Source of the DNA: a virus
Reading direction: 5' to 3' (one strand)
Virus record (IMG/VR): IMGVR_UViG_3300028586_000750
DNA: 64,000 nucleotides
The notes below the pieces were generated by a model. It ran no database searches, had not been told where the DNA came from, and saw nothing but the letters and a program-made list of their open reading frames with translations. Every line of letters starts with the position of its first letter. The first letter of the stretch is position 1. Below are positions 3,102-63,378 of this stretch, piece after piece. The translations under genes were made by a program, and so were the position numbers.

Positions 3102-4247
3102 TTACTTGGTGCTTGGAGTGTATGAGTAAATAGTTGCCCAGTCAATCAATACGTGACCTGCCGTTGTTTTGGCAGGAATTTTCCCATCGGCTGTTTCTAC
3201 TTGCATTACCCAATGCATTTTTGCGGTAGGAATAGACTCTGTTGTTGAACCAACTGCAACACCATCAATGTAGTAAGTTAATCTTTCAGGTGTCCAGTCA
3301 ATTGTGTATGTATGCCAATCTGTGTATTTAGCATTCGTTTCTACAACCATGCAGTTATTGGCTGGTGCTCCAACGCAATGGTTGTAACCGCGTACGTTAC
3401 CGTTTAGTTCGCCTTCTGGGAAGTCAATTTCTCCATCGTTCCAGTTGTTGTCATCTGACCACAGTAGGAAAGCTGTTTTATATCCTTCTAAGCTGTCTGT
3501 TTTCATACGGACACTGAAACGACCGTATTGTTGTCCGCCCCATTGTTCGTTAACAAGAGGAATAGGCGCTGCTGTTTTAGGTCGACCATCTGCACCTGTG
3601 TGTAGGTACATGTCTAATTTGCTATCGTTAACTGAAATAATACTTTGGTCATAGTCACCATTTTTGAAAGTGTCAGTGAAACCATTGTAGCTCATCCACC
3701 ATCTTGCGTAAGGACCAGGGAAACCACCTGTAGCTACAGGGGTGTTAAAATCCTCGCTGTGGGTCTGAGTCCAGCCAGGCAGGTTTCCCTTAGGCATTGA
3801 TGGGTCGGCGCTCACAGTGGACGCTGGTGGCGCTACAGTAAAGGTTTTGGCGTTATCGCCACCTACTGTCACCCATTGGCCGTTATATAGGACGCAAGCA
3901 AAATAGTTATAAGTTCCAGCAGGTAAAGTCTTCGTCTTTGTTAATGTAGTACCTGTAGTGCTTATAGTCACATTATAACTTTCAGCAAAATCAACATTTT
4001 TATTAGAAGCATCACGAGCACAAATGCTAGCTGATGCTACCTTTGTTGTAAAAGATGATTTGATTGTTGCTTTAGCTGTAACGCTGTTTCCGGTTACATT
4101 TGCGCTCAGGTTTGAGACAGTAAATTTTGGAGTTGCAGCCGAAGCTGGAGTTGCAATCGTCAAAGCTAAAGTAGAAGCAGCTAAAAGGGCTAACCCAGTT
4201 TTAGCTAGAACTTTACGTCTAGGTTTGGTTGTTTTCAGAAGGGACAT
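3102..4247 (-). CDS. Secreted glycoside hydrolase family 16 (beta-glucanase-like)
   Basis: Sec signal ending ASA-A; GH16 catalytic ExDxxE (GEIDFPEG); WHTYTIDWTP motif. Confidence 0.85.
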   Translation of the reverse strand: MSLLKTTKPRRKVLAKTGLALLAASTLALTIATPASAATPKFTVSNLSANVTGNSVTAKATIKSSFTTKVASASICARDASNKNVDFAESYNVTISTTGTTLTKTKTLPAGTYNYFACVLYNGQWVTVGGDNAKTFTVAPPASTVSADPSMPKGNLPGWTQTHSEDFNTPVATGGFPGPYARWWMSYNGFTDTFKNGDYDQSIISVNDSKLDMYLHTGADGRPKTAAPIPLVNEQWGGQQYGRFSVRMKTDSLEGYKTAFLLWSDDNNWNDGEIDFPEGELNGNVRGYNHCVGAPANNCMVVETNAKYTDWHTYTIDWTPERLTYYIDGVAVGSTTESIPTAKMHWVMQVETADGKIPAKTTAGHVLIDWATIYSYTPSTK

Positions 4248-11133: not shown

Positions 11134-14070
11134 ATGTCAAATCGTAAAGTAGTCTCAACCCGAAAAAGAATTATTGCAGGGACACTAACAACGCTATTAG
11201 CGTGTGGTGGTTTTGTTGGAATGGCCGCAACACAGGCATCAGCAGCAACATGGGCGGACCAAGCAAACAGTTCAGCTAAAGAATTACCAACAGCCGCATC
11301 AGCTTATAGCAACAAAGGAATAAGAGTAGCAGACGGAATTAATCCACCAACAAACTCATGGATTTCAGGAGCAGTTTTCGTAGGAGACGGAACACCTAAA
11401 CCAACATTTACAGGTTCCACATCATTTAAAACGTATGATGACAGTTTTGGCGTATTCATGCCTAATATTGTTGCAACACCAAAAACAGTGTTCGGTATGT
11501 ATTCCGATGATAACCAAATCAAATTCAAACCAGCCGGAGCGTCCAGCTACCAGTTAACAAGAATTGATGACATTTCCGCTGACCTAACCTATATGAACGG
11601 TTCACAAAAAGTTGGTACAGTCACATCAGCAGAAGGCTGGCCTTATGTTCAATACAAAGCAAACACAGCACAACAAGTAAAAGTTACAGCACCAAACGCT
11701 ATAACTAAAATTGATGGTGGTTACACTTTTAAAGACAACAATGGTACAACCTACAGAGTTATTACCAGTGCAACTTTGACTGACGGTAACTTAAACCTCA
11801 AAGCAGGCCAAATGGCTCATGTTTATGCGGTACCAAAAAACGCATCAGCGGATGAAATCAAAACTCTCGATGCAGGCGCTGTAGAACTAACAGGTAGTAA
11901 CACCAGTTACGCTATCACCAATGGTGAAGCTGTAACAGAGTTCACATTAAAAACAGTAGATAATAAACCAACTGTGTTTGCATCTATGCCTCACCAAGAT
12001 AAAATAACTAGTAACGGCACCACTTTAAAAAGTACCTACGAAAACCTTCAAGGAACAATGGACTTACTTAGTGGTAACAAGTTTACATACGCTATTCCAG
12101 CGCTTGCAACTCCACTTGATTTAGACCTTTCAGGTATGAGTGATGAAGAAAAGACAACACTTAAAGCTCAAATTCGTGCTGACATTCCAACAGTAACTAA
12201 ATTTGATGCCGAAGGTTCATATTATGGTGGTAAGTACCTTGAACGTGCTGTTCAGGTTTACCGTTTAGCTAAGCAGCTTGATATGAAAACGGAAAGCGCA
12301 ACATTGAAAACAGCTATCACCGCTGAGCTAGACATGTGGATGGACCCTGACCGTTGCGAAACAGAGTCAACTAAATGCTTTACCTATGATGAACTTCTTA
12401 AAGGTGTTGTTGGGCAAAAAGCAGAATATGGTTCTGATACAGAATTTAATGACCATTACTTCCACTATGGTTACTTCTTATATGCTGCGGGAGCTATGGC
12501 ATTAGATGACCCAACATTAGTTTCTAAATATAAGACTGTTGCTGACATTCTTGCTGCTGATATTGCTAATACACAAGATACTGACACAGCAATTGAACGT
12601 CGCAACTTTGATGATTATGCAGGCCACTCATGGGCTTCTGGTGTTTCACCATTCCAAGATGGAAATAACCAAGAGTCAACTAGTGAAGCAACAAATGCTT
12701 GGATTGGTCTTAACCTTTGGGCTACTGCTTCTGGTAACACCGAGTTAGCTACAGAAGCACAATGGATGTTCTCTAACGAAGCTCGCACAGCAGTTCAATA
12801 TTACCTAAATCCTACAAAAAGAGACGGCTTCACGTCGCCTCATCTATCCATGGTTTGGGGAGGTAAAGCAGACTATGCAACATGGTTCAGCGGCCAAGCA
12901 TCAGCTATTACAGGCATTCAAGTTATTCCTGTGGCACCAGCACATATTGCATATTTGAAGAGCGTAGGAGACGCGCAACTTGATGTACTTAGCGATAGCG
13001 TATTTGGAGCTAACAACGAAAATGTTTCAGGTCAACCATTGGTTGATTGGACTGTTGCGTTAACAGCAATGAATGACCAAGAACGTGCTGAATTACTTTA
13101 TGGTAAATTGAAGGACAGTGACATTGATAATGGTAATACTCGTTCTTACTTGTATGCTCTTATTCATTCCGCTGGCGCAGTTGAGTCTGCGCCAGTTATT
13201 CCAAGTAACCCTTCTGAACCAACTACACCCGTGACACCACCCGTAGTTACTCCACCTGTTACTCCACCAGTAACAACCCCCGAGCCAACTACACCACCAG
13301 TAGATAGTGGTAAAGCATCTGCAACAGGCTCATTAACTGATACTGCTGACGGTGACCACACTGTATCTGAAAATGGAAGTATCACACAAAAACTATCTTA
13401 TACAGGGTTAACACCTAATAATGATTATGTTGTTATTACAGAACTGTTTGATACCAAAACTGGTGCAATTGTTGGCGTAAAAGACAAAGTATTCCGCCCA
13501 GCAACAGCAACAGGTGAAACAAGTTTGGCCTTTAGCTACAGCGATAACTTTAAAGGTAAAACAATTGTGGCACATACTCGTTTGTTAGGGCCTGGTGGCG
13601 CTGTAATTGCTAACTTGAATAAAACAAGTGATACAAACCAGATTGTTACTTTCAGTGGTGGACAAACAACACCACCAGTTGTTACCCCACCTGTAACAAC
13701 CCCCGAGGTACCATCCGGTTCTCCTAAGTTTACTTCTGAGCTAACTGATGCTTCTGATGGTGACCACAATGCTAAAAATGGTGCAGAGTTAAAACAAACA
13801 GTTAACTATACAAACCTTAATGCAGGTCAAGATTACGTTATTGTTGTTGAACTGTTGGATGCTACAACTCAACAACCTGTGGGTGTGGTAAAAGACAAAG
13901 TATTCCGTCCATCAACATCAAATGGAACAACCACTTTGAGCGTTCCAACAAGTAACTCACAGAATGGTAAAACCGTATTCGCCAAAGTACGCTTTCTAGG
14001 GCCTGCTGGGGCAGAGTTCAGTAATGTTACTACTGAACTAAATGCAAAACAATCAGTTAAGTTAGGTTAA
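11134..14070 (+). CDS. Secreted GH81 endo-1,3-beta-glucanase with Pro/Thr linkers and two VaFE/T-Q ester-bond-like Ig domains
   Basis: Signal peptide; NDHYFHYGY and GNNQESTSEA GH81 motifs; two C-terminal repeats TD..DGDH...Y..L....Y....L.D..T......K.F.P. Confidence 0.88.
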   Translation: MSNRKVVSTRKRIIAGTLTTLLACGGFVGMAATQASAATWADQANSSAKELPTAASAYSNKGIRVADGINPPTNSWISGAVFVGDGTPKPTFTGSTSFKTYDDSFGVFMPNIVATPKTVFGMYSDDNQIKFKPAGASSYQLTRIDDISADLTYMNGSQKVGTVTSAEGWPYVQYKANTAQQVKVTAPNAITKIDGGYTFKDNNGTTYRVITSATLTDGNLNLKAGQMAHVYAVPKNASADEIKTLDAGAVELTGSNTSYAITNGEAVTEFTLKTVDNKPTVFASMPHQDKITSNGTTLKSTYENLQGTMDLLSGNKFTYAIPALATPLDLDLSGMSDEEKTTLKAQIRADIPTVTKFDAEGSYYGGKYLERAVQVYRLAKQLDMKTESATLKTAITAELDMWMDPDRCETESTKCFTYDELLKGVVGQKAEYGSDTEFNDHYFHYGYFLYAAGAMALDDPTLVSKYKTVADILAADIANTQDTDTAIERRNFDDYAGHSWASGVSPFQDGNNQESTSEATNAWIGLNLWATASGNTELATEAQWMFSNEARTAVQYYLNPTKRDGFTSPHLSMVWGGKADYATWFSGQASAITGIQVIPVAPAHIAYLKSVGDAQLDVLSDSVFGANNENVSGQPLVDWTVALTAMNDQERAELLYGKLKDSDIDNGNTRSYLYALIHSAGAVESAPVIPSNPSEPTTPVTPPVVTPPVTPPVTTPEPTTPPVDSGKASATGSLTDTADGDHTVSENGSITQKLSYTGLTPNNDYVVITELFDTKTGAIVGVKDKVFRPATATGETSLAFSYSDNFKGKTIVAHTRLLGPGGAVIANLNKTSDTNQIVTFSGGQTTPPVVTPPVTTPEVPSGSPKFTSELTDASDGDHNAKNGAELKQTVNYTNLNAGQDYVIVVELLDATTQQPVGVVKDKVFRPSTSNGTTTLSVPTSNSQNGKTVFAKVRFLGPAGAEFSNVTTELNAKQSVKLG

Positions 14071-14236: not shown

Positions 14237-15979
14237 TTAAATATTACCAATCTTTTTGGTATTCGTTGGAACATTAATAAGCTTTGCAATATCCGCTGGG
14301 ATAGGTGTAGCAACACTTACGTTATTTGTTTCATCAGCAGTCATACTGCTAAGAGGAAGAACTGTTTTAGTTATAGCGTTCTTCCATGTTGGATTAATAT
14401 TTTTGTTTAATGCTTCTGGTGTATCATAGCGAATGAAATCACCTGTTGAGTCAGGTGTTACACCCCATGCAACAACAGTGTTTTGACCAGTCTGAGCACG
14501 AACATTGAATAAGTTGCCTGTTAACGTAATGTTTTTAGGAGCGGCATTCAAAGCGTAGAACTGGAACCCTTTAGTGGCACCAAAAGTGTTGTTAGCAATG
14601 GTGATATCTTTTGTTACCCATGAAACAGTAGGGTCTGGTAACGGTTGACGTGGGTCATGACCAGGAACTTTAGTGTCTGAGGCTAAACGACTATCTTGTG
14701 CTACACGAACAGCGAAGCGAGAGTTATTTTCAAACTCGTTATTGTAAACTTTTACGTCACCAGTGCCCACAATGGTTAAACCATCTGTTTGGTTACTGGA
14801 ACTGTTGTTGGCAACAATAACTTTTTGAGACAATTCAAGAGAAATACCTGTTGAACTGTTGTTATTAGTAATGCTGTTGGTAATAGACGCGTTGTAAACG
14901 GATTCGTCTAACCAAATACCTGCACCCCAGTTGTTACTTGAATAAAGGTTGTCAATTTTAACATCACGTGAACGTGTGATTTTGAAACCGCCAGCCACTG
15001 GTGCTTGTTTGAATTGCTGGAAATTGTTTTGTTCAATACGTGAGTTCGTGAAGGATGAACCGTATGCTGCGTTAGAACCTAAACCAAGCATTCCGCTTCT
15101 TAGAATAGTTACATGGTCAACTTTAGCATTGTTGTTACTCATGCTAAGACCAAGGTATGCGTTGTCTTCTATTTGAAGGTTTTGTGCTGTAGCGTTAATG
15201 TTAACCATACGGACAGCAGCTTGGTCTTCACTTGTTGAAGCGTAACGTCTTACACCAAAACCTTGAAGTGTTGTTCCTGCTGAGTTAACCATGATACCGG
15301 CACTCAAGTTGCTTATACGAACTTCTTTACCTACGGGACTTGTTCCAATAATAACTTTTTTAGCCACAGTATCAACGTAGAAAGTATTACTTTTAACTTC
15401 TGCGGCAGTGGCTACTTGTGTCATCTGCACACCATTAATGAACACTTGGTCACGTTTAGACGCTAAAGGATGGTCTTTATGTACGTAACGTGGGTTATCT
15501 GCGATACCATCAATTACTGATGATGGGAAGAAGGACCAAGGGGTTGACCATGTTGTACCATTTTGTGTCCATGTGGTTACTTTTTGCGAACCATCAAACC
15601 ATACAGTTTCTTTAGGATAAGCCTGAATGGTAAGAGGTTTGCTGTAAGGGACATTAATGCTTTCGTTGTACTCACCTGCACGTACAACAACCGTTTGACC
15701 TGCTTTAGCTTTTGTAACAGCAGCTTGAACTGTTTTTAATGGGCTTGCTAGCGTCCCTGCGGCTGTATCAGAGCCTGTTGGAGCTACAACAAGTGCAGTA
15801 GAAGGGACAGCATAGTTTGTCGTTCCTAGCTTAGCTGAGCCTTGCGTTGATGATGGTCCAGTTACAGGTAGCGTTGCAGCGTTTGCACCGGTTACTGTAA
15901 TTAGCGGAGAAACAAGAAGAGCGATAGTTATAGCACCTACCGCTCGTTTCTTTTTACTAAAAATAGATAGTTGTTTCAT
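14237..15979 (-). CDS. Secreted right-handed parallel beta-helix (pectin-lyase-like fold) protein
   Basis: Likely start MKQLSIFSKKK; signal peptide; VAPTGSD..GT..SP.KT..A motif; Asn-ladder repeats. Confidence 0.8.
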   Translation of the reverse strand: MKQLSIFSKKKRAVGAITIALLVSPLITVTGANAATLPVTGPSSTQGSAKLGTTNYAVPSTALVVAPTGSDTAAGTLASPLKTVQAAVTKAKAGQTVVVRAGEYNESINVPYSKPLTIQAYPKETVWFDGSQKVTTWTQNGTTWSTPWSFFPSSVIDGIADNPRYVHKDHPLASKRDQVFINGVQMTQVATAAEVKSNTFYVDTVAKKVIIGTSPVGKEVRISNLSAGIMVNSAGTTLQGFGVRRYASTSEDQAAVRMVNINATAQNLQIEDNAYLGLSMSNNNAKVDHVTILRSGMLGLGSNAAYGSSFTNSRIEQNNFQQFKQAPVAGGFKITRSRDVKIDNLYSSNNWGAGIWLDESVYNASITNSITNNNSSTGISLELSQKVIVANNSSSNQTDGLTIVGTGDVKVYNNEFENNSRFAVRVAQDSRLASDTKVPGHDPRQPLPDPTVSWVTKDITIANNTFGATKGFQFYALNAAPKNITLTGNLFNVRAQTGQNTVVAWGVTPDSTGDFIRYDTPEALNKNINPTWKNAITKTVLPLSSMTADETNNVSVATPIPADIAKLINVPTNTKKIGNI

Positions 15980-16165
15980 TGTTGAATTACCTTTCCTCAT
16001 GGTATTTTTTTGAATACAAAATGAACCCTTAATATGGGTGCACTCTATCCCCGTTTTAAATATCTGCATTTTGTTTAAGACCGCAACATAATAGGAAAAG
16101 TCTGGTATCAAAATGGTTAACACTTTAATACCAGACTTTTCCTAGAAAACTTTAGATAAGAATAG

Positions 16166-16579: not shown

Positions 16580-16929
16580 TCGTAGCGAGTGTCAGCTTTA
16601 GCTCATGACTTCTGCCGCTGTCTTCACTACTACAGATTTTCACTGTTTGCCTCTTGCCACCTTCGGGTCTGAGCCAGTCCCTAATGGAGGATAGTATCCG
16701 CCGACACGTCCTTTGGTCTGTTTGCCTTGGTTATACAAACACAATACTTATTTTTATCCGTTATTCCTGGTGTCCCTCCCTTGCCACCATTACAGCAGCC
16801 GAGTTTGACTCAAAGTATTTTACAGTTTTTACCTATGCAGTTAACAACTCACTGTCAGTTTCTACGGTTTCACGATAACCGCCAACGGAACATCTTTCAG
16901 GCGCGACCCGTCAATTTGTTCACTCACAG
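16580..16929 (-). ncRNA. Candidate ~350-nt structured ncRNA directly 3' of tRNA-Lys
   Basis: No sense-strand ORF; 5' GUGAGUG pairs with 3' CACUCGC; many short helices and A-rich linkers; ends at a terminator (16548-16580). Confidence 0.5.
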
Positions 16930-34971: not shown

Positions 34972-35583
34972 CTACATGTTGCGAAGAGCAAATGTTAGTT
35001 CACCGTCATAACGTACACGACGGTTTAAGCCGTTCTTGTAGACAACTTCGGCGGTTAAACCAACTTTGTCATCGTTCTCTGAAAATGTGTCCACGAATTC
35101 AGACCAGCTATCATGGAAATAGTGTGTTACTGCAACAATTTCATACTTAGCTGGGTTTTCACGCTTATCATAGATAAGTTCGTGGTCTTGCCAACCGTAT
35201 GTGCTTTCACTGAGCGCTACAGGGTCACCATGCTTAGCTAAGAACTTAGCTACTCGGTGGTTGTAAACGTTCTGTGTTGTTTCTTCTACAGGTGGTAAAA
35301 GTAAGTTGGTAGCGCTGTAAATAACACTGTCTGCATCAAACCACTTTTGATGAATAACATCTACAGTGGAAAGTAAGAACTTGTCTGAAGATGATGAAAG
35401 CCAACCAATTCTAATGTCTTCTGCGCGCGCTACATCAAATAGGGTCATTTGACGGCTTGCTTTAGCTAAAGCGGCAATTGCTTCATCAACTACGTAAGCA
35501 TTGAAATTGTATAGTTCTGGTGCTTCTTTAAGCGTTAGATAGATTTCTTCTAACTGAGAAACATTTTCTTCATAGGTAGACAT
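34972..35583 (-). CDS. Hypothetical protein
   Basis: 203-aa ORF; C-terminus similar to 45587..46090 (FVDTF..DD.V...AEV / FDSF...DD.VSAQV). Confidence 0.65.
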   Translation of the reverse strand: MSTYEENVSQLEEIYLTLKEAPELYNFNAYVVDEAIAALAKASRQMTLFDVARAEDIRIGWLSSSSDKFLLSTVDVIHQKWFDADSVIYSATNLLLPPVEETTQNVYNHRVAKFLAKHGDPVALSESTYGWQDHELIYDKRENPAKYEIVAVTHYFHDSWSEFVDTFSENDDKVGLTAEVVYKNGLNRRVRYDGELTFALRNM

Positions 35584-46184: not shown

Positions 46185-46748
46185 GTGCACATGAGTAAGA
46201 ACATTGTTATCACCGGAATGCCTGGTTCCGGTAAAGGAACACAAGCTACACTGCTAGCTTCACGTCTAGGTATTCCTCACATTTCAACTGGTGATATTTT
46301 CCGTGACGAAATGAAGCGTCAAACCCCTCTTGGTATTTCTATTACCGAAAGCATGAATGCCGGTAAGTACACGAGCGACGAGATTACTAACGCTGTAGTT
46401 AAAAACCGTCTTGCTCAGCCTGACGCAGCGGACGGGTATATCCTTGATGGTTACCCTCGCACAGTGAACCAGGTTGCGTTCCTAGATGAAATTGGTGTTG
46501 ACATTACTCATGTCATTGACCTTCACATTGACCCTGACCTTGCTCTCAGCCGTCTGCTAGGTCGTGCTCTAGAACAAGCGCGTGGTGATGACACTGAAAG
46601 TGTAATCCGTGGTCGCATTGATACATACTTTAAGACAGTTGTTCCTGTGCTTGATATTTATAAAAGCCGTGGTCTAGCTGAGCAAGTGTCTGCTGTTGGT
46701 AAAATTGCTGACATTAACGAAGAACTATATACCCTCCTAACTAAGTAA
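46185..46748 (+). CDS. adk: Adenylate kinase (short, LID-less)
   Basis: GMPGSGKGTQ, HISTGDIFR, LDGYPRT, GDD. Confidence 0.93.
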   Translation: MHMSKNIVITGMPGSGKGTQATLLASRLGIPHISTGDIFRDEMKRQTPLGISITESMNAGKYTSDEITNAVVKNRLAQPDAADGYILDGYPRTVNQVAFLDEIGVDITHVIDLHIDPDLALSRLLGRALEQARGDDTESVIRGRIDTYFKTVVPVLDIYKSRGLAEQVSAVGKIADINEELYTLLTK

Positions 46749-47770: not shown

Positions 47771-48820
47771 TTATGTCCATGTAGATTTGAATTTACGTTC
47801 AAATTTAGGTTTCATATCGTGCTCTAAACGTTCGCGTTCGATACCTTTTTTAACCGCTAAAGCATCCATAAGGTTGTCATATACTCGTTGCTTTTTAGCG
47901 TTATATTCCGGACTGTGATTAGGCATGATACCTTCACGTACGGCACGTAATTCTGCCTGAATTTCAGATGCTACTCTTTCAGCAGAAGAGACTGTCCTAA
48001 TAGGCATATCAATAACATCTTTCAATACTGAACCGTCAGGTGCAGTAAGCGCTTTAGCTCTTTTAGCTTCCTCGCGTTGAGCTTTTTCTAATGCTCTGTT
48101 TTCACGTTCTTGTTGACGTTGACGGAGCACTGGATCTTGAATACGCGATTCTCTACTTAAACCTTCAACAGGCGCAGAAGGGTAACACGCGGTGCAAGCA
48201 ACTTTCCCAGCATCAGCAACCAATGTTGCTTCATCTTTACCAGAATAATCTGTTAACCAAATGTATTGCGTTGATGGTGTACATGTTCTACAGTTCATGT
48301 TTTTGTGGACATGACCGTTAGAGTTTTTAACTAAAAAACCACGTGTCCATGGTCTACGTTTGTATTCAAGCTCATAAGGAACAACTTCTTCTAGAATTTG
48401 ATTAGCTTCTTTATGATATTCGCTTATCTTTTCTTCTAAACGTTCAATACTACGAGAGGTACTTTCATAATATCTTGAAGTTTCGCTCATTTCTTCAAGG
48501 ATACGTTCCGTTCTTTCCAAATTGACTACTGCAACGTTAAGAGGTACAGCAACTTCATAGTATTTGTCGTATAGTTCAGAAATTTGTGTGTCTATTTCTT
48601 TGGGTTCTTTAGAAGACAAAGGATTTTTAAGTTTTTCCATATCTTTAAGCTGTTCTGTTACTGTTTTGGTACTGAAGTCAGCAGGTAAACCTTTATTACC
48701 ATGACGTAAACAGTTTGGGCCGGAATAGCAACGGCTACCATCGGGCAAAGTAATATATTGAGCCATTATATTCTCCTTAAATAAGTTATATACCATACCT
48801 ATCAGATAAACAGCGCTCAT
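47771..48820 (-). CDS. Hypothetical protein with N-terminal CYSGPNCLRHG motif and internal H..C..C / C..C Zn site
   Basis: Probable start MAQYIT (AAGGAG RBS); GHVHKNMNCRTC...CTACYP. Confidence 0.75.
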   Translation of the reverse strand: MSAVYLIGMVYNLFKENIMAQYITLPDGSRCYSGPNCLRHGNKGLPADFSTKTVTEQLKDMEKLKNPLSSKEPKEIDTQISELYDKYYEVAVPLNVAVVNLERTERILEEMSETSRYYESTSRSIERLEEKISEYHKEANQILEEVVPYELEYKRRPWTRGFLVKNSNGHVHKNMNCRTCTPSTQYIWLTDYSGKDEATLVADAGKVACTACYPSAPVEGLSRESRIQDPVLRQRQQERENRALEKAQREEAKRAKALTAPDGSVLKDVIDMPIRTVSSAERVASEIQAELRAVREGIMPNHSPEYNAKKQRVYDNLMDALAVKKGIERERLEHDMKPKFERKFKSTWT

Positions 48821-54182: not shown

Positions 54183-54400
54183 ATGTCAGTGGCCAGTCTT
54201 ATCCTTATGGTATGAAAACAATTATGGAAATCAATATTCGCCGTGGAGTTCTTCTTTCATTAATTAAACACACTGAAGATAATGAAGATTGGATTGCTTT
54301 TACCAGCGAACTACGTGCACTTGATTGGGTTCTTGGTACGGCCCAAAAGTAAAAGTTTTAAACAAAATGTCCCCCACTAAAATAGTGGGGGACATTTTTA

Positions 54401-55306
54401 TTACACAAGCTTATGTTTAGGATTACCACTTCGTGTGATGTGCCTTGGTGGAACAATAATGGTAGTGTCAGATTCAACTGGTTCCTCTTTTAAATCACGA
54501 CCAGTTTTTCTAGCCCATACTGCGTAAAGTGCACAAAACAAAGTGGGTGTTAACCAAACTGCAACAAGCAGAACCCAGTTATGGAAACTTAGATGAGGTT
54601 GAAGTAACACATTGTAATAACCATCATCATTTGCGTAAGATGAAACAACAGAAACTAGTTCACCAGGTGACGAAATACTACTAGTTCCTTTTTCAGCGGT
54701 TCCTTGAATATCAAAAATACCTGTTCCTACAAACAAAGTAGTAGCATTATCATCTTTTACTGATTGACTAATCAAAGATGCGTTGAAATAAGGTTTTGTA
54801 ATTAAAGCTGCTACAGAAATTAGTAAGTACCAACCCATTACGCGAATAGGAAAACGGTAATATCGTGCACTAAAGTAGCTGGTAATTAAATGTAGAACTA
54901 AACCACCTACAATGAGTAATGGAAGTACGCGTAGTAAGAAACCAAGATTTTTCACATGTAGTAACTCTTGGCCAACTATTTGGTCTTGAGTGCTTACAAC
55001 CCAAGGATCAACAGAGCCATTAAGGTCACCTTTAGTTTTTAAACCTTCATCCGTGACTTCATGAACACGGTGAAAGAATGTTGATTCTGTACCGGGAGGA
55101 TGAAAAGCGAGAGTATCCCCAACAGACAAATCTTTAATTTGCACAGGCTTACTAATAACAAATGTGCCTACTGGTGAATATGTACCCATTGATGGTGTTT
55201 CAACAATAAAAGTACGTAATCCGTTAGCGTAGCCTAGACCAATAGCAGTGAGAGCCGCTAAAAGAACTAAAGCTGTAATTTTGAAAGTCAAACTTAAATT
55301 TCTCAT
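54401..55306 (-). CDS. sipW: SipW-like (S26B, ER-type) signal peptidase with extra TM/extracellular domain
   Basis: TPSM (catalytic Ser), FHRV (His), TKGDLN..DPW; ATG overlaps upstream stop (TAATG). Confidence 0.82.
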   Translation of the reverse strand: MRNLSLTFKITALVLLAALTAIGLGYANGLRTFIVETPSMGTYSPVGTFVISKPVQIKDLSVGDTLAFHPPGTESTFFHRVHEVTDEGLKTKGDLNGSVDPWVVSTQDQIVGQELLHVKNLGFLLRVLPLLIVGGLVLHLITSYFSARYYRFPIRVMGWYLLISVAALITKPYFNASLISQSVKDDNATTLFVGTGIFDIQGTAEKGTSSISSPGELVSVVSSYANDDGYYNVLLQPHLSFHNWVLLVAVWLTPTLFCALYAVWARKTGRDLKEEPVESDTTIIVPPRHITRSGNPKHKLV

Positions 55307-56730
55307 TAGATTACCGTCACATTTCCACGCCAAGTAAACGTAGTATTTTGGAAACCTTTTTGTGTAATCACAATAGGTACAGATAATTTAAGACCTGTAT
55401 CAAAGTCACTATTGTAGTTATCGTTTCTTTGAATTTGGACAGTTATTCTTTGTGTTGAACCAGGCGCAGGGGACACCATAGGAACAGCAGCGGCAGCAGC
55501 AAGTTCGCTTACGTTTTTAGATAAAGCTCCACAAGGTGCTGCGCCATTGTATGGGAAGATACAGCTAGTAGTTGTCCCGACAGAAATGTTTACATGTGTG
55601 CAAGGGTTTGACGCACCAATCACAGGGTATGGACCAGCATAAGTAACTGTACCTGTGTCAGTGAAATACCAATAACTTTGTGGGCCAAAAGCTAACACAC
55701 GTGAAGAATAAGTGTTGAATGTAGTTGCGCTGTAAAGGTTAGTAACGTTAGCAGCAGTGTAAACGGAAGGTTGCACTGCAAAGTTAGATACTGAACCTTT
55801 GAAGGTAGTACCAGAACCAGAGAAACCATCTGCTGTTGTAATGTTACCCTGACCGACATGCCAGTAACCATTAGCTGTTGCACGAGCAACAGTAGGTGTG
55901 TCATGGGTCGCGCTTGCAACAACTGCACCATCAACGTAAAGAGTTGTTTGTGATGTTGATGTAGTAACGTTTGATTGCGCTGTCGCAACAACATGGTGCC
56001 AACCGTTATTTGCATAATTTACACCTGATGATGTGATTGTTCTTGCAGAACCTGAAAAGGTTGAGAAAGCTAATGAACCATTTGAAGTAAAGTATACAGA
56101 CCTGTCATAAAGACCACTAATTTTGTCACTAGCTGCGGGTGACCAGCTAAATAGCGCACCAGAGGCAGTGTCAGTTTTGAACCACATACTTAGTGAAAAG
56201 TTTTGTAGTGGTGCAGTAGGGTTAATATTGATTAGTGAACTAGCGTTGTTACCATTCAAACGAATTGAGTTGTTTGAATATGAAAGCTTATCTGGTCCTG
56301 GTTGATTAAATGATGTTGACCCACGAGAAAGCATAGGGTTAGCAGCGTTTCTATTGTCTGCAACACTAACTGGGCCACATGACCTTGCTTTATATGTTGA
56401 GCTAATCGCGCCCATTGTTCCGGGGTTGCTAAGGTCAACATTACTTGTACCTAGTGCAGCAGTAGGTACTGATGGGAACTGGTCACTTGAACAAACAAAG
56501 GAATCTGTATCATCAATTTTGTTTGATGATGGTTCTGATGTGCATTGTGTGGTTCCTTCGCGTGCTGCTTTAAGGAAAAGAGTTCCTGAACCAAAACTGT
56601 TTGTGGGGTTGTTAATTGAACCGGTGAAGCCGCTTTGTGCGCCGCTGTTCGCTACAACTAAAGAAACCGTCAAGAAAGCAACAACAAACAATGAAGTAAT
56701 TGTAAGTGTTGCTTTCTTGACGGTTAACAT
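55306..56730 (-). CDS. SipW-substrate protein with LamG/concanavalin-like domain
   Basis: AQSGFTGSINNPTNSFGSGTL SipW-type leader; FSLSMWFKT, WHHVVAT, LYVDG. Confidence 0.8.
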   Translation of the reverse strand: MLTVKKATLTITSLFVVAFLTVSLVVANSGAQSGFTGSINNPTNSFGSGTLFLKAAREGTTQCTSEPSSNKIDDTDSFVCSSDQFPSVPTAALGTSNVDLSNPGTMGAISSTYKARSCGPVSVADNRNAANPMLSRGSTSFNQPGPDKLSYSNNSIRLNGNNASSLININPTAPLQNFSLSMWFKTDTASGALFSWSPAASDKISGLYDRSVYFTSNGSLAFSTFSGSARTITSSGVNYANNGWHHVVATAQSNVTTSTSQTTLYVDGAVVASATHDTPTVARATANGYWHVGQGNITTADGFSGSGTTFKGSVSNFAVQPSVYTAANVTNLYSATTFNTYSSRVLAFGPQSYWYFTDTGTVTYAGPYPVIGASNPCTHVNISVGTTTSCIFPYNGAAPCGALSKNVSELAAAAAVPMVSPAPGSTQRITVQIQRNDNYNSDFDTGLKLSVPIVITQKGFQNTTFTWRGNVTVI

Positions 56731-56767
56731 TCTGAACCCTTTCAGAGTTTTGGTTTAAGTATTTCTA

Positions 56768-57451
56768 TTAGGAAGAGAAAGACCAGGTTAGGCTTTGTGA
56801 AGCAGCTAGACCTTGATGAGCATTAGTGGTACTTGCCTGGTCAATTTGTAGGAAGAAGTCGTATACGCGACTTGCGCCTGGTGCTAGTGGAGCCTCTAAG
56901 GTTAGAGGGGTTGAGCTAATGTTAGCTAGTGTTAGACCGTTCTCAGGCCCTACAGCACAAGCAGAAGCTGATGCTGGTACGACACACTTTGGAGAAGCAG
57001 TTGTGCTGTCCTGAAGGGCAACATTGATTTTGCTACAGAAATCTGTTGCAGTACCGTTCTTTGGCCCATTGTTGCTTTGTGTGCAAACACCAGGAGTTAG
57101 TGTGAATGAGTTAGCTGTTGTGGTACCAGCGTTCTTGATGGTTACTGTAGTTTTAACAATTTCACCGGGAGTATGGTTCATACCGCCACCGAATTTGTTA
57201 ATTTGTGGACAAGTACCAGCATTAGAAGCGGTAATTCCTGCATCAGATGATAGACAGGTAACAGCAGCTTGAGATTCGGACATAAGAAGCGTACCGGAAC
57301 CAAAAGTGTTGTTGGGGTTATTAATACTAGCGGTGAAGCCAGATTGTGCGGGGACAAAAGCGAATGCCGCAATAACAGTAGCTAAAACTCCTAGAAGAAT
57401 TGCTAGTGGTAGTGAGTAGCGTCTTGCTTTTGGCATTACATGTGTAGACAT
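56768..57451 (-). CDS. TasA/camelysin-like SipW-substrate fibre subunit
   Basis: AQSGFTASINNPNNTFGSGTL leader; PG..V..TVTIKNAGT; HQGL.ASQSLTWSF C-terminus. Confidence 0.8.
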   Translation of the reverse strand: MSTHVMPKARRYSLPLAILLGVLATVIAAFAFVPAQSGFTASINNPNNTFGSGTLLMSESQAAVTCLSSDAGITASNAGTCPQINKFGGGMNHTPGEIVKTTVTIKNAGTTTANSFTLTPGVCTQSNNGPKNGTATDFCSKINVALQDSTTASPKCVVPASASACAVGPENGLTLANISSTPLTLEAPLAPGASRVYDFFLQIDQASTTNAHQGLAASQSLTWSFSS

Positions 57452-57912
57452 ATTTATACCTTTCTGATTACCCTTCCGTGGGTAATGGGTTCATGATTAA
57501 TTTATTATTAGTCGGGTTTGTTTCTGTGATCTGTGATGAATTTAACTTTCTCTATATCACAGGGGAAATAGAGAAAGACGCAAGCTCATCTTTGCGCCTT
57601 ATTTTCAGTGTAACATACATGTTAAATGTTACTAGTCCCCAGTTAGGGGGACATTGTATGCACGCGCATGTTTTACCAAATTCAATATAGCATACTTCCC
57701 ATTGTGAAATCAAATTTTATTTAAAATAACCTCACTTCATACTTCGAAATCACCCGCTAATACCCTAAACATCAATTTATAGCAACGCAAAATTCTGTTT
57801 TAAAAGCAAAAGATAACAAAAGATAACAGATATACAAGAATACTTTACGGTCAAACTATGTATTTAGAAATAACGGATATACCTATTAAGTGAACATCAC
57901 GAAAAGGTCTAT

Positions 57913-58401
57913 ATGTTAAATAGAATAAAAGAAATACGTTCTGCTAAGCCAGAAGAGGGATTTACCCTCATTGAACTAATGATTGTTGTGGTAATCATTG
58001 GCATCTTAGCTGCTATTGCTATTCCTATTTTCGCTAACCAACAAAAAGCTACTATTGACGCACGTACAAAAAGCGATATTAAGACAGCGCAATTAGCTGT
58101 CAGCACATGGGTTTCAAAAAATCCTCAATCTAAAACATTTACGGACCAAGCTGGTAGTAATTCAATCTTAGCAAGCCAAAAGTATTCAGATGGCACACAA
58201 ATTGCTATGTACGGCACTCCAATGGACTGGTGTGTAAGAGCATTCAACACTGATGGTAAAGAATTCAATGCATCTAATAGCTACGTTGTTTACAAATCTG
58301 TTTTAGGAAAAATGGGTCACGGTAACGAAATTGGTGTTGTTTCACAATCAAGCTGTTTCTCAGCAAATGGGTCAGTCACTATCGAATTAACAAATAGTTA
58401 A
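57913..58401 (+). CDS. Type IV pilin
   Basis: EEG-FTLIELMIVVVIIGILAAIAIPIF; C-terminal Cys pair. Confidence 0.9.
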   Translation: MLNRIKEIRSAKPEEGFTLIELMIVVVIIGILAAIAIPIFANQQKATIDARTKSDIKTAQLAVSTWVSKNPQSKTFTDQAGSNSILASQKYSDGTQIAMYGTPMDWCVRAFNTDGKEFNASNSYVVYKSVLGKMGHGNEIGVVSQSSCFSANGSVTIELTNS

Positions 58402-58419
58402 TCATTATAAAGACAAATT

Positions 58420-58956
58420 ATGTTAAATAAATTTAAAGAAATGCGTTACGCTAAGTCCGAAGAGGGCTTCACTCTTATTGAGTTGATGATTGTTGTCGTA
58501 ATTATTGGTATCCTAGCTGCGATTGCTATTCCTATTTTTGCTAACCAACAAAAAGAAGCACAATTCGCTGCTGTAAAATCTGACGTTAAAAACGTTGTAA
58601 CCATGGCAACAACCCAAAAGACTAAAACAGGTAAATTCCCTACAACTTGTGCTCAATGGGATTCTGTAATGCCAAACAACTGGCGTTCAACTTCAACAGG
58701 TGGTATGGCTGCACGTGTATCACCAGATGGATTAAACCTTTGGGTAGAAGCACAACCTGTTGACCGTAACGCGGCCAAAACAGAAGCAGAAGAAGCATCA
58801 TTCACTGCCGTATATGACTCTTCAAAATCTAGTGGTATTTTAACTCGCGCTCAATTTTCAAGCAAATATAACGTTTCTAACGTAGACCAAGCGCAAGCAA
58901 TGGGTTACACCAATTCCGGAATTATTTTCGGAACAGGTGCCTGCACAGCCTGGTAA
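58420..58956 (+). CDS. Type IV pilin
   Basis: Same prepilin helix; divergent globular domain with Cys pair. Confidence 0.9.
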   Translation: MLNKFKEMRYAKSEEGFTLIELMIVVVIIGILAAIAIPIFANQQKEAQFAAVKSDVKNVVTMATTQKTKTGKFPTTCAQWDSVMPNNWRSTSTGGMAARVSPDGLNLWVEAQPVDRNAAKTEAEEASFTAVYDSSKSSGILTRAQFSSKYNVSNVDQAQAMGYTNSGIIFGTGACTAW

Positions 58957-59021
58957 AACTTAACAAAACAATAGATAAAGCGCCCCACCAGAATTAACTG
59001 GTGGGGCGCTTTATCTATATA

Positions 59022-59312
59022 TTACTTAGAAAAGATATGCTTGATAAGTTTGGTAATAAGAGTATCTAGCTCTACCATATCAACGCTATCAACATACCCG
59101 TCTTCGTCAAGTTCGCCAGGAAGGTAACCTTGACTGATAAGAGCCGCAGCAACATCATATTTCCAGCCGCTATTTCCAAAAGGACGTTTTCCTGAAAAAC
59201 CTTCTTCTTCGTCCCATACCTTGATAAGAAGTTCCTGTAACATTTCTTTTACAGTAGCAACGCCTCTGAAATCCGTAAGAGGGGTTGCAAGAATTGCGTC
59301 ATAGTTTGTCAA
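59022..59312 (-). CDS. Hypothetical phage-type protein
   Basis: EEEGFSGKRPFGNSGW motif. Confidence 0.7.
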   Translation of the reverse strand: MTNYDAILATPLTDFRGVATVKEMLQELLIKVWDEEEGFSGKRPFGNSGWKYDVAAALISQGYLPGELDEDGYVDSVDMVELDTLITKLIKHIFSK

Positions 59313-61659: not shown

Positions 61660-63378
61660 ATGAAACTAATAGATCATCCAACCCTAGCCGCAGAATGGCA
61701 CCCTACCAAAAATGGGGACTTAACACCTGAAAATGTTAATAGTAGCTCACGCGAGAAGGGGTGGTGGCAATGTTCTAAAGGACATGAATGGTTGCAAAGA
61801 ATTGAATTTAGAACATTACGACATAATACTTGTGCAATTTGTAAAATTAATGCTATTAGTCTAGCGGTAACTCACCCTCATTTAGCGGAAGAATTTCACC
61901 CTACACTCAATGGTGATTTGACTGCGGAAACAGTAACTTATGGTCGTAGCACAAAAGCGTGGTGGTTAGGTAAAGATTGCCAACATGTTTGGGATGCAAC
62001 CCCAGCAAATCGTGCGCGTTTAAAACAGAATTGCCCCTATTGTGCAGGCAAAAGAGTAATTCCAGGGAAAACAGATATTGCTACGACCCATCCTGAACTA
62101 CTTATTGAATGGCATCCAACATTAAACACTCTTAAACCTACTGAAATTTCTAAAGGCTCGCATAAAAAGGTATGGTGGTTAGGTAAAGATTGCCAACATG
62201 CTTATGAAGCTACAATTCCTCATCGCTTAGAAGGTAAAAATTGTCCCTATTGTGCAGGCAGGAGAATTTTAGCTAAAGATAATGATTTATTGCATGTCAA
62301 TCCAAAATTAGGTTTAGAATTTCATCCTACTTTTAATGGAGCGGTCAAAGCTGATGAATTAGCGCCTAATGCACGAGCAAGCTATTGGTGGCTCTGCTCA
62401 GCGTGCAGTCATGAATGGAAAGCTGCGGTTTATTCTAGATCAGCAGGTAATGGTTGCCCTAAATGTGGTATCTCAAACTTTCAGTCTGAACCGGAAAAAT
62501 ATATAGTCAATTTTCTTAACAAACTTGATATAAAAACAGAACAAAGCAATAGAACACTTTTAGATGGTCAAGAAATAGACATTTACTTACCTGATTTCAA
62601 TTTTGCCATTGAATATAATGGCTTGTACTGGCACAGCGAACAAATGGGTAAAAATAAATACTATCATCGTAATAAATATGAACTAGCTCAACAAAAAGGT
62701 ATCCAGCTAATTCAAATTTGGGAAGATGATTGGAAGGTAAAGAAAGATTTCATTCTTATTAGTTTGCTACATAAACTAAACAAACATGAATATTTGGAAA
62801 AAGCTATACCTGGTTTACCTTCCGCTAATTATGAAAAAATTGATGCTAGAAAAAGCACTATATCAGCAATAACTTATGCAGAAGCTTTAGCGTTTTTAAA
62901 TACTAACCATATTCAAGGTGGAGTAACAGCAAGTATTTACCTAGGTCTAAAAGACAAGAAAACAAATACCCTTCGTGCCGTGCTTACTTTTAAGAAAGAA
63001 AAAGATAACTATATTCTCAACAGGTATGCAACTATTGGCGTCATTCGTGGTGGGTTTACAAAAATGCTCTCTTACTTTGAGAAAACATATAAGCCTACTA
63101 CTGTAATTACATTTGCTGACCACACTGTAAGTAATGGTAAATTATACGAAAACAATGATTTTATAGCAGAGAAGGAACTACTACCTGATTACAGCTATCT
63201 CTACAGAAGCAAACGTGAGCACAAATTTAACTTTAGGTTAAAAAGATTTAAAACAGATGCATCATTGGTCTACGTTCAAAATAAAAGCGAAAGCGAACTT
63301 GCTATCATCAATAACATTTACCGTATCTGGGATGCTGGTAAAACTAGGTATGTTAAAAGATACAACTACTCGTCTTAA
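61660..63378 (+). CDS. Zinc-ribbon repeat plus PD-(D/E)xK nuclease (Hef-like homing endonuclease)
   Basis: Four HP.L..EWHP..N...WW.C..C.H.W...CPYC repeats; EIDIYLPD...AIEYNGLYWHS; IWDAG. Confidence 0.8.
   Translation: MKLIDHPTLAAEWHPTKNGDLTPENVNSSSREKGWWQCSKGHEWLQRIEFRTLRHNTCAICKINAISLAVTHPHLAEEFHPTLNGDLTAETVTYGRSTKAWWLGKDCQHVWDATPANRARLKQNCPYCAGKRVIPGKTDIATTHPELLIEWHPTLNTLKPTEISKGSHKKVWWLGKDCQHAYEATIPHRLEGKNCPYCAGRRILAKDNDLLHVNPKLGLEFHPTFNGAVKADELAPNARASYWWLCSACSHEWKAAVYSRSAGNGCPKCGISNFQSEPEKYIVNFLNKLDIKTEQSNRTLLDGQEIDIYLPDFNFAIEYNGLYWHSEQMGKNKYYHRNKYELAQQKGIQLIQIWEDDWKVKKDFILISLLHKLNKHEYLEKAIPGLPSANYEKIDARKSTISAITYAEALAFLNTNHIQGGVTASIYLGLKDKKTNTLRAVLTFKKEKDNYILNRYATIGVIRGGFTKMLSYFEKTYKPTTVITFADHTVSNGKLYENNDFIAEKELLPDYSYLYRSKREHKFNFRLKRFKTDASLVYVQNKSESELAIINNIYRIWDAGKTRYVKRYNYSS

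Follow-up and report, generated by a model that had tools for sequence, protein, structure and literature searches.

What would a set of genes resembling tapA–sipW–tasA be making on a molecule filed as viral, and what sort of genome holds it? The question is raised by IMG/VR virus record IMGVR_UViG_3300028586_000750, of which we analysed a stretch of 64,000 nucleotides (the window). Three co-directional open reading frames (ORFs), here called A, B and C, are present on its minus strand at 54401–57451. A first-pass annotation had read them as an operon of a TasA-like subunit, a LamG-bearing subunit and a SipW-type peptidase on a phage-like genome. The three-gene operon is borne out by the ORFs themselves, by the match of the modelled fold of A to the TasA fibre structure 8aur, and by the matches of B to the LamG family PF13385 and of C to the signal peptidase model TIGR02228; the phage is a different matter, taken up below. 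The explanation we favour, and to which we give slightly better than even weight as a whole, is that of a self-contained TasA-superfamily fibre operon acquired once from Actinomycetota and residing in a lineage of Saccharibacteria. Within it we infer that C cleaves the subunits, that these polymerise, that carbohydrate is bound and that the genome is cellular.

Organisation of the operon

Gene A (56768–57451, minus strand) encodes 227 residues and is predicted to specify a secreted TasA-superfamily protein, the likely major fibre subunit. Gene B (55306–56730, minus strand) encodes 474 residues, a putative secreted TasA-like subunit with an inserted LamG/pentraxin-like domain, and gene C (54401–55306, minus strand; longest ORF 54401–55333) a predicted signal peptidase I of the endoplasmic reticulum (ER)/archaeal, or SipW, type, of about 301 residues. 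The start of C is most likely the ATG at 55306, giving 301 residues, because the closest relatives are 300–301 residues long and begin at the equivalent ATG. This codon overlaps the TAA stop of B as TAATG, so that the translational coupling of the peptidase to B described in the first-pass annotation is confirmed. Purine-rich ribosome-binding sites precede both A and B.

The leaders of the two secreted subunits

Hydropathy analysis of A and B reveals a single N-terminal hydrophobic segment in each, followed by the tripeptide AQS. The leaders read AQSGFTASINNPNNTFGSGTL in A and AQSGFTGSINNPTNSFGSGTL in B and are identical at 18 of 21 positions, with GFT(A/G)SINNP.N.FGSGT as the consensus common to both; the residues after AQS, GFTASINNPNNTFGSGTL in A and GFTGSINNPTNSFGSGTL in B, are nearly identical. 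A regular-expression search of all the ORFs in the window found the motif in A and B and in no other. In the family alignments, small residues are conserved at positions −1 and −3 of the predicted cut, and the N-terminal strand is the most conserved stretch of A and likewise of B.

The predicted fold of protein A

The family of A was defined by an alignment of 39 sequences. It shows a signal peptide probably cut at AQS|GF, a set of four invariant cysteines and, towards the C terminus, the motif YQGL..S..LTW. The AlphaFold2 model built from this alignment has a mean predicted local distance difference test (pLDDT) score of 78.6. Foldseek returned one significant match for it, the TasA fibre 8aur_A (E 1e-5, probability 1.0), and this chain was also the only one to match with Z of at least 8 (Z 10.2, root-mean-square deviation 2.5 over 138 residues), far ahead of the unrelated structures compared. 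Next in order were the monomeric crystal forms of TasA (Z 7.8), followed by the archaeal bundling pilus 7ueg (Z 7.6); the 0406 thread 7pnb also matches, and both 7ueg and 7pnb are donor-strand polymers. On the strength of the model, A can be assigned a TasA-superfamily jelly-roll fold. Its N-terminal strand is placed with low confidence on its own subunit, as would be expected for a strand that is donated to a neighbour.

Sequence models give a different picture, and two of their results weigh against the fibre assignment: A matched no Pfam family at E ≤ 0.1, Peptidase_M73 (PF12389) included, and no NCBIfam model matched either A or its 39 homologues. TIGR04088, the SipW-cognate signal-peptide domain, found no match in A, B or the 39 homologues, and the profile of the A family found no TasA chain among the sequences of the Protein Data Bank (PDB). 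The Agreia homologue of A is labelled 'SipW-cognate class signal peptide' in UniRef, and the ...F.SGTL motif is present in the family.

This lack of a match to the TasA/camelysin sequence models is a point in favour of another proposal, in which A and B, whatever genome they come from, do not polymerise but act as single adhesin or lectin molecules, secreted or wall-associated, that merely have a TasA-type jelly-roll and a dedicated peptidase in common. A further point is that no wall-sorting or anchoring signal is visible in A or B and no gene for a TapA-like anchor or nucleator is visible. Against monomers stand the best structural match, which is to the fibre form of TasA rather than to its monomer crystals, the further matches to donor-strand polymers, and an N-terminal strand that is both the best-conserved part of the two proteins and poorly placed on its own subunit. 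We regard the monomeric alternative as unlikely and retain the fibre interpretation.

Protein B carries an inserted lectin-type domain

Pfam identifies a LamG domain (PF13385, 2e-13) at residues 171–329 of B. It lies within a LamG/pentraxin-like insert, residues ~121–360, that splits a TasA-like domain into two parts, residues ~26–120 and ~360–470. Comparison of the two families by hhalign pairs residues 30–125 of A with 26–120 of B (97.5%, E 6e-12) and residues 124–223 of A with the last ~100 residues of B (91.5%, E 9e-7), and the profile–profile alignment takes in matching cysteines. The AlphaFold2 model of B has a pLDDT of 79.7; its LamG part resembles carbohydrate-binding domain 4 of the arabinanase AbnA and the pentraxin PTX3, with Z ~18. 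Because both halves of B align to A and the LamG domain sits between them, the modelled B is best described as the fold of A into whose disulfide-closed loop a lectin-type domain has been inserted.

Protein C, a predicted signal peptidase of the SipW type

C matches TIGR02228, the model for archaeal-type signal peptidase I, with an E-value of 3e-13 and a score of 49.8 bits against a cut-off of 51.85. Its score against the SipW equivalog NF046067 is 14.5 bits, below the cut-off of 190. From these comparisons C appears to be SipW-like in type and no orthologue of SipW. Residues S48 (in TPSM), H88 (in FHRV) and D103 and D109 (in a GDLNG.VDPW box) are invariant in 14 homologues, so that C has the catalytic serine and histidine, without a lysine, and the GDN-type box of such a signal peptidase. 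The profile of the C family also aligns to human SEC11A/C across the Ser and His boxes (E 0.0015).

According to hydropathy analysis, C would cross the membrane with four helices, and an additional outside segment of ~70 residues would separate helices 3 and 4. The catalytic domain is predicted to lie outside the membrane. The relatives in the 14-homologue alignment have the same architecture. SipW has two membrane helices and is the shorter protein, C exceeding it by ~110 residues. The extra outside segment is a candidate for holding the fibre on the cell.

Comparison with known systems

The tapA–sipW–tasA system of Bacillus subtilis (PDB 8aur; PMC9674648) likewise sets a secreted jelly-roll subunit beside a dedicated ER/archaeal-type Ser/His signal peptidase, shares the ...F.SGTL N-terminal motif past the cleavage site and, in TasA, provides the best structural match of A. 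The differences are considerable. Sequence identity is only 14–17%, and the proteins described here match neither Peptidase_M73 nor the SipW equivalog nor TIGR04088. Here there is no TapA, there are two conserved disulfide pairs, and the second subunit has an inserted LamG domain.

In the AbpX, AbpA bundling pilus and TafE loci, a major subunit, minor or 'tip' subunits and a TIGR02228-type signal peptidase I occur together (bioRxiv 10.64898/2026.01.04.697558). The combination of subunits and dedicated peptidase is the one found in the window, and the match of A to 7ueg extends the likeness to structure. Peptidases of the AbpX type cross the membrane with ten helices and come with a DUF5305 partner, and actinobacterial homologues were placed in the TasA cluster, not the AbpX cluster (bioRxiv 10.64898/2026.01.04.697558); C, in contrast, has four helices, and no DUF5305 partner was noted here. 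The closest counterpart in a known organism is the uncharacterised cassette of Agreia bicolorata, which has the same genes in the same order and is sister in the tree of C; that cassette resides on the high-GC chromosome (62%) of a free-living actinobacterium.

Judged from its sequences, the system would work like tapA–sipW–tasA, AbpX, AbpA and TafE, but by sequence it falls outside the TasA/camelysin and SipW families. The kind of system is already known, and what is new is the predicted split-domain lectin subunit, the predicted four-helix peptidase and the proposed origin in a host phylum. In the literature we came across no paper that connects SipW or TasA with Saccharibacteria, and none describing a phage-encoded version, in agreement with the first-pass annotation, which knew of none.

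Distribution, selection and origin of the cassette

A search with C, in which each GTDB species was represented by one genome, yielded 167 relatives, of which 80 were kept. All 80 are from Actinomycetota, mainly from Microbacteriaceae (Curtobacterium, Clavibacter, Rathayibacter, Leifsonia and Agreia), so that the expectation of related operons in Actinobacteria was well founded. Of the ~130 fetched loci in which both genes are present, nearly all have a homologue of A immediately upstream of C, and the named ones are all Actinomycetota. Most Microbacteriaceae loci have A–C followed by a different LamG protein, without a full-length B. The full order A–B–C is found in Agreia bicolorata (NZ_JYFC01000003.1), at identities of 49% for A, 35% for B and 40% for C. 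The model for archaeal-type signal peptidases finds three matches in the Agreia genome. That in the A–B–C cassette scores lowest, so that even for this actinobacterium the cassette is an additional and divergent system.

The closest metagenomic relatives of C (45–53% identity) lie on contigs of 788,683, 878,612, 883,042 and 885,359 bp with 45–48% GC, and further homologues of A were found on metagenome contigs of 637–696 kb. The order A–B–C is conserved in these related contigs of 0.64–0.89 Mb; in one locus, L086, it is A–C–B. Since the arrangement recurs in the related contigs and in Agreia, and since A adjoins C widely, the operon is more than a chance arrangement. All three genes are under strong purifying selection in the clade, the ratios of nonsynonymous to synonymous substitution rates (dN/dS) from near-identical pairs being 0.03–0.05 for A, 0.04–0.19 for B and 0.04–0.08 for C.

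The IQ-TREE phylogeny of C recovers the window clade as a monophyletic group (support of 99 in the Shimodaira–Hasegawa-like approximate likelihood ratio test, SH-aLRT), sister to Agreia (98) and nested in Actinomycetota. An origin of the cassette in Actinomycetota is thus probable, and between Agreia and the window clade transfer may have run in either direction. Within the window clade the cassette has diverged by 45–60%. Its GC content is that of whichever genome carries it, so that the acquisition is old, and for this reason a recent transfer from a high-GC donor was considered and rejected. Together, the observations indicate one old acquisition of the cassette followed by vertical descent.

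The nature of the carrier genome

The carrier is probably a Saccharibacteria-type cell; a giant phage-like element is a much less probable carrier, and a plasmid-like element a very improbable one. One indication comes from the tyrosyl-tRNA synthetase (TyrRS) of the window, which was found on a contig of 791,407 bp and has a ladder of homologues at 96, 79, 75, 72, 69 and 67% identity. One member of the ladder is on a 696,453-bp contig that also carries a homologue of A. Below the ladder come hundreds of proteins at 60–65%, and the named ones among these are solely from Candidatus Saccharibacteria and Saccharimonadales metagenome-assembled genomes (MAGs). In a tree of TyrRS, the window clade is sister to a large Saccharibacteria-type clade, with ordinary branch lengths and no acceleration. 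Genomes of 0.64–0.89 Mb with 40–48% GC fit Saccharibacteria. In the relatives, moreover, the cassette is flanked by genes of cellular type, encoding HtrA-type proteases, an AAA_10 (VirB4-like) ATPase, TPM proteins and a luciferase-like oxidoreductase.

The actinobacterial origin proposed for the cassette would also suit a giant plasmid-like extrachromosomal element of Actinomycetota bearing a spare host fibre cassette. The window clade, however, has a GC content of 40–48% against 62–71% in the actinobacterial loci (62% in Agreia), the cassette is fully ameliorated and has diverged deeply within the clade, and TyrRS is of the Saccharibacteria type. We consider such an element highly improbable.

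The claim that a phage carries the operon requires fuller treatment. A and C gave no tblastn match in 50,697 phage records, none of A, B and C matched a family in PHROGs, and the operon DNA gave only a 68-nucleotide match at chance level when compared with phages. The first-pass annotation had proposed a search of IMG/VR for related operons, and our scan with the alignment of C returned no relatives there. Scans with the protein encoded at 47771–48820 and with DUF7275 were equally negative, and TyrRS yielded a single match at 39%; thus, four scans of IMG/VR found no close relative of the lineage. Within the 64-kb window, no virion gene (capsid, portal or terminase) was seen.

Several findings nevertheless weigh against a cellular, Saccharibacteria-type carrier. 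C is at most 40% identical to its relatives in the GTDB species genomes, Agreia being the closest among the matches listed. A stand-alone adenylate kinase gene (46185–46748, plus strand) has one match at 66% and then matches at 45–51%, and its nearest named relatives, an Actinomycetota MAG and Neobacillus (45–47%), are not Saccharibacteria-like. Other features of the window are phage-like: an island at 16929–37660 holds 15–19 tRNA genes, among them three for Leu-UAA and two for Leu-CAA; by our estimate ~70% of the 86 ORFs are without a Pfam match, many of them small; and there are HNH endonucleases, a thymidine kinase and a dCMP deaminase. The 349-residue product of 47771–48820 (minus strand), which has no Pfam match, has homologues in 317 phage records, all from phages of Actinomycetota (Mycobacterium, Microbacterium, Arthrobacter, Gordonia, Rhodococcus and Streptomyces). 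The 96-residue product of 59022–59312 (minus strand) matches phrog_15618 (2e-19) and also 122 phage records, mostly of 150-kb Escherichia coli phages of the phAPEC8 type. Finally, a DUF7275 gene in the related locus L087 is 55% identical to genes of Streptomyces phages. The window thus has a phage-like look, as reported earlier, but the view that the operon belongs to a phage is unsupported; the molecule is probably chromosomal.

The adenylate kinase had been considered as a second taxonomic marker and was dropped, its neighbourhood being mixed and uninformative; from its relatives it looks like an acquired extra copy. The tRNA island reads mostly A/U-ending codons. In L084 and L087, too, there are Leu tRNA genes of a similar kind ~8 kb upstream of the cassette, and the arrangement of tRNA genes and cassette is thus loosely conserved.

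These phage-like traits would suit a giant phage or phage-like virus of Actinomycetota. The cassette would then be an auxiliary module, retained over a long time, by which the virus causes its host to build a fibre bearing a lectin. The nearest cellular relatives of the cassette are in Microbacteriaceae, which would then be the host, and the lineage is absent from the GTDB species genomes. Such a virus would not be expected to possess a Saccharibacteria-type TyrRS with normal branches, it is implausible that a cell of 0.8 Mb should have a phage of 0.8 Mb, and to our knowledge 0.64–0.89 Mb is larger than every accepted phage genome. With the cell-type neighbours in the relatives, the window free of virion genes and the negative scans of IMG/VR set beside this, we give the phage little credence. 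Also unlikely is the proposal in its most striking form, that these are the largest phage-like viruses yet seen (0.64–0.89 Mb), which infect leaf-litter Actinomycetota, have long kept, alongside pilins, a TasA-type fibre operon that came from the host and includes a lectin subunit, and re-dress the surface of the infected cell. A Saccharibacteria-type cell living as an epibiont on actinobacteria could plausibly take up DNA from its hosts and from their phages, which would explain the presence of a host-type cassette together with actinophage-type genes.

Putative control elements

Upstream of A there is a conserved hairpin, GTCCCCCTAACTGGGGAC, at 57635–57652 (minus strand) in the predicted 5′ untranslated region. 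A segment of 61 nucleotides around it (57602–57662) is 90% identical to the related locus L081, compared with ~66% for coding DNA, and a GTCCCCC-loop-GGGGAC hairpin is found at the same place, ~190 nucleotides upstream of A, in L081, L082, L084 and L086. The pattern has one match in the window against none expected; we therefore rejected the idea that it is a genome-wide repeat. The hairpin is a candidate cis-regulatory element of the fibre operon, perhaps a riboregulator or a site to which a protein binds. An Rfam search of the window and four related loci found tRNAs only.

A consensus scan also picked out a promoter-like site at 57684–57713 (minus strand; TTGATT, 18 nucleotides, TG-TATATT), ~230 nucleotides upstream of A, and since such sites are fewer in the real region than in its shuffles, this is weak evidence for a promoter. 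At the other end, just past the stop codon of C, an intrinsic-terminator-like hairpin at 54359–54395 (minus strand), ATGTCCCCCAC / GTGGGGGACAT followed by TTTTGTTT, consists of a perfect, GC-rich stem of 11 bp with a T-run and would close the operon. This hairpin resembles that in the leader of A.

Neighbouring genes

Two type IV prepilin genes, at 57913–58401 and 58420–58956 on the plus strand, are recognised by their N_methyl motifs (7e-9 and 2e-8) and are transcribed divergently from the cassette, as the first-pass annotation had stated. Between this pair and the convergent gene for the 96-residue protein is a putative bidirectional terminator, a perfect 20-bp hairpin at 58972–59017. The further suggestion that fibre and pilins form one surface-appendage island fares poorly. 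Only in the window and in L086 does the cassette have pilin genes nearby; in L084 and L087 it has none, and with adjacency in only two of four lineages we rejected a single conserved island. The pilin-like genes of L086 (15185–16588 and 17978–19027) are large, encoding 467 and 349 residues, lie 3–6 kb downstream of the cassette and have Ala in place of Gly before the FTLIEL motif.

Elsewhere in the window, a gene at 61660–63378 (plus strand) encodes a protein of 572 residues with four DUF4379 treble-clef zinc-finger repeats, which matches HNH/homing-endonuclease families in PHROGs (1e-86). A conserved neighbour at 34972–35583 found no usable match in the ESM Atlas. Three further genes, at 3102–4247, 11134–14070 and 14237–16123, encode a GH16 protein, a 978-residue protein of the GH81 beta-1,3-glucanase type with T-Q ester-bond domains, and a 628-residue beta-helix protein; their predicted products suggest attack on or attachment to glucans, for example those of a fungal or plant wall.

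A model for the fibre and its significance

In the model that we propose, A and B would be exported via Sec and cut by C after their shared AQS, exposing the N-terminal strand GFT(A/G)SINN...FGSGTL. TasA (PMC9674648) assembles by handing its freed N-terminal strand on to the following subunit; by analogy, the strand exposed here would be donated in turn and A would polymerise into a shaft, into which B would be built as a lectin-like adhesive subunit. The ancestor of the 0.64–0.89-Mb clade would have taken the cassette once from Actinomycetota, among which Agreia (Microbacteriaceae) is nearest, and selection would have kept it. Rather than a phage, that clade most probably represents a lineage within the Saccharibacteria, which are epibionts of Actinomycetota, and the fibre would attach the small cell to the wall of its host or to plant-litter polysaccharide.

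If the molecule were viral after all, it would hold the first virus-encoded TasA/SipW system, a far more surprising result. The analysis also exposes a large actinobacterial branch of the TasA superfamily, with 167 genome loci, some of them in plant pathogens (Clavibacter, Rathayibacter and Curtobacterium). This branch escapes every Pfam and NCBIfam model, and we found no study of it. The predicted split-domain B and four-helix C are variants in architecture and open to direct tests, and the inserted lectin-type domain is an obvious candidate for the recognition of host-wall or plant glycans. If the carrier is a Saccharibacteria epibiont, the cassette would be a clear case of a parasite that keeps a surface-fibre kit from the phylum of its host.

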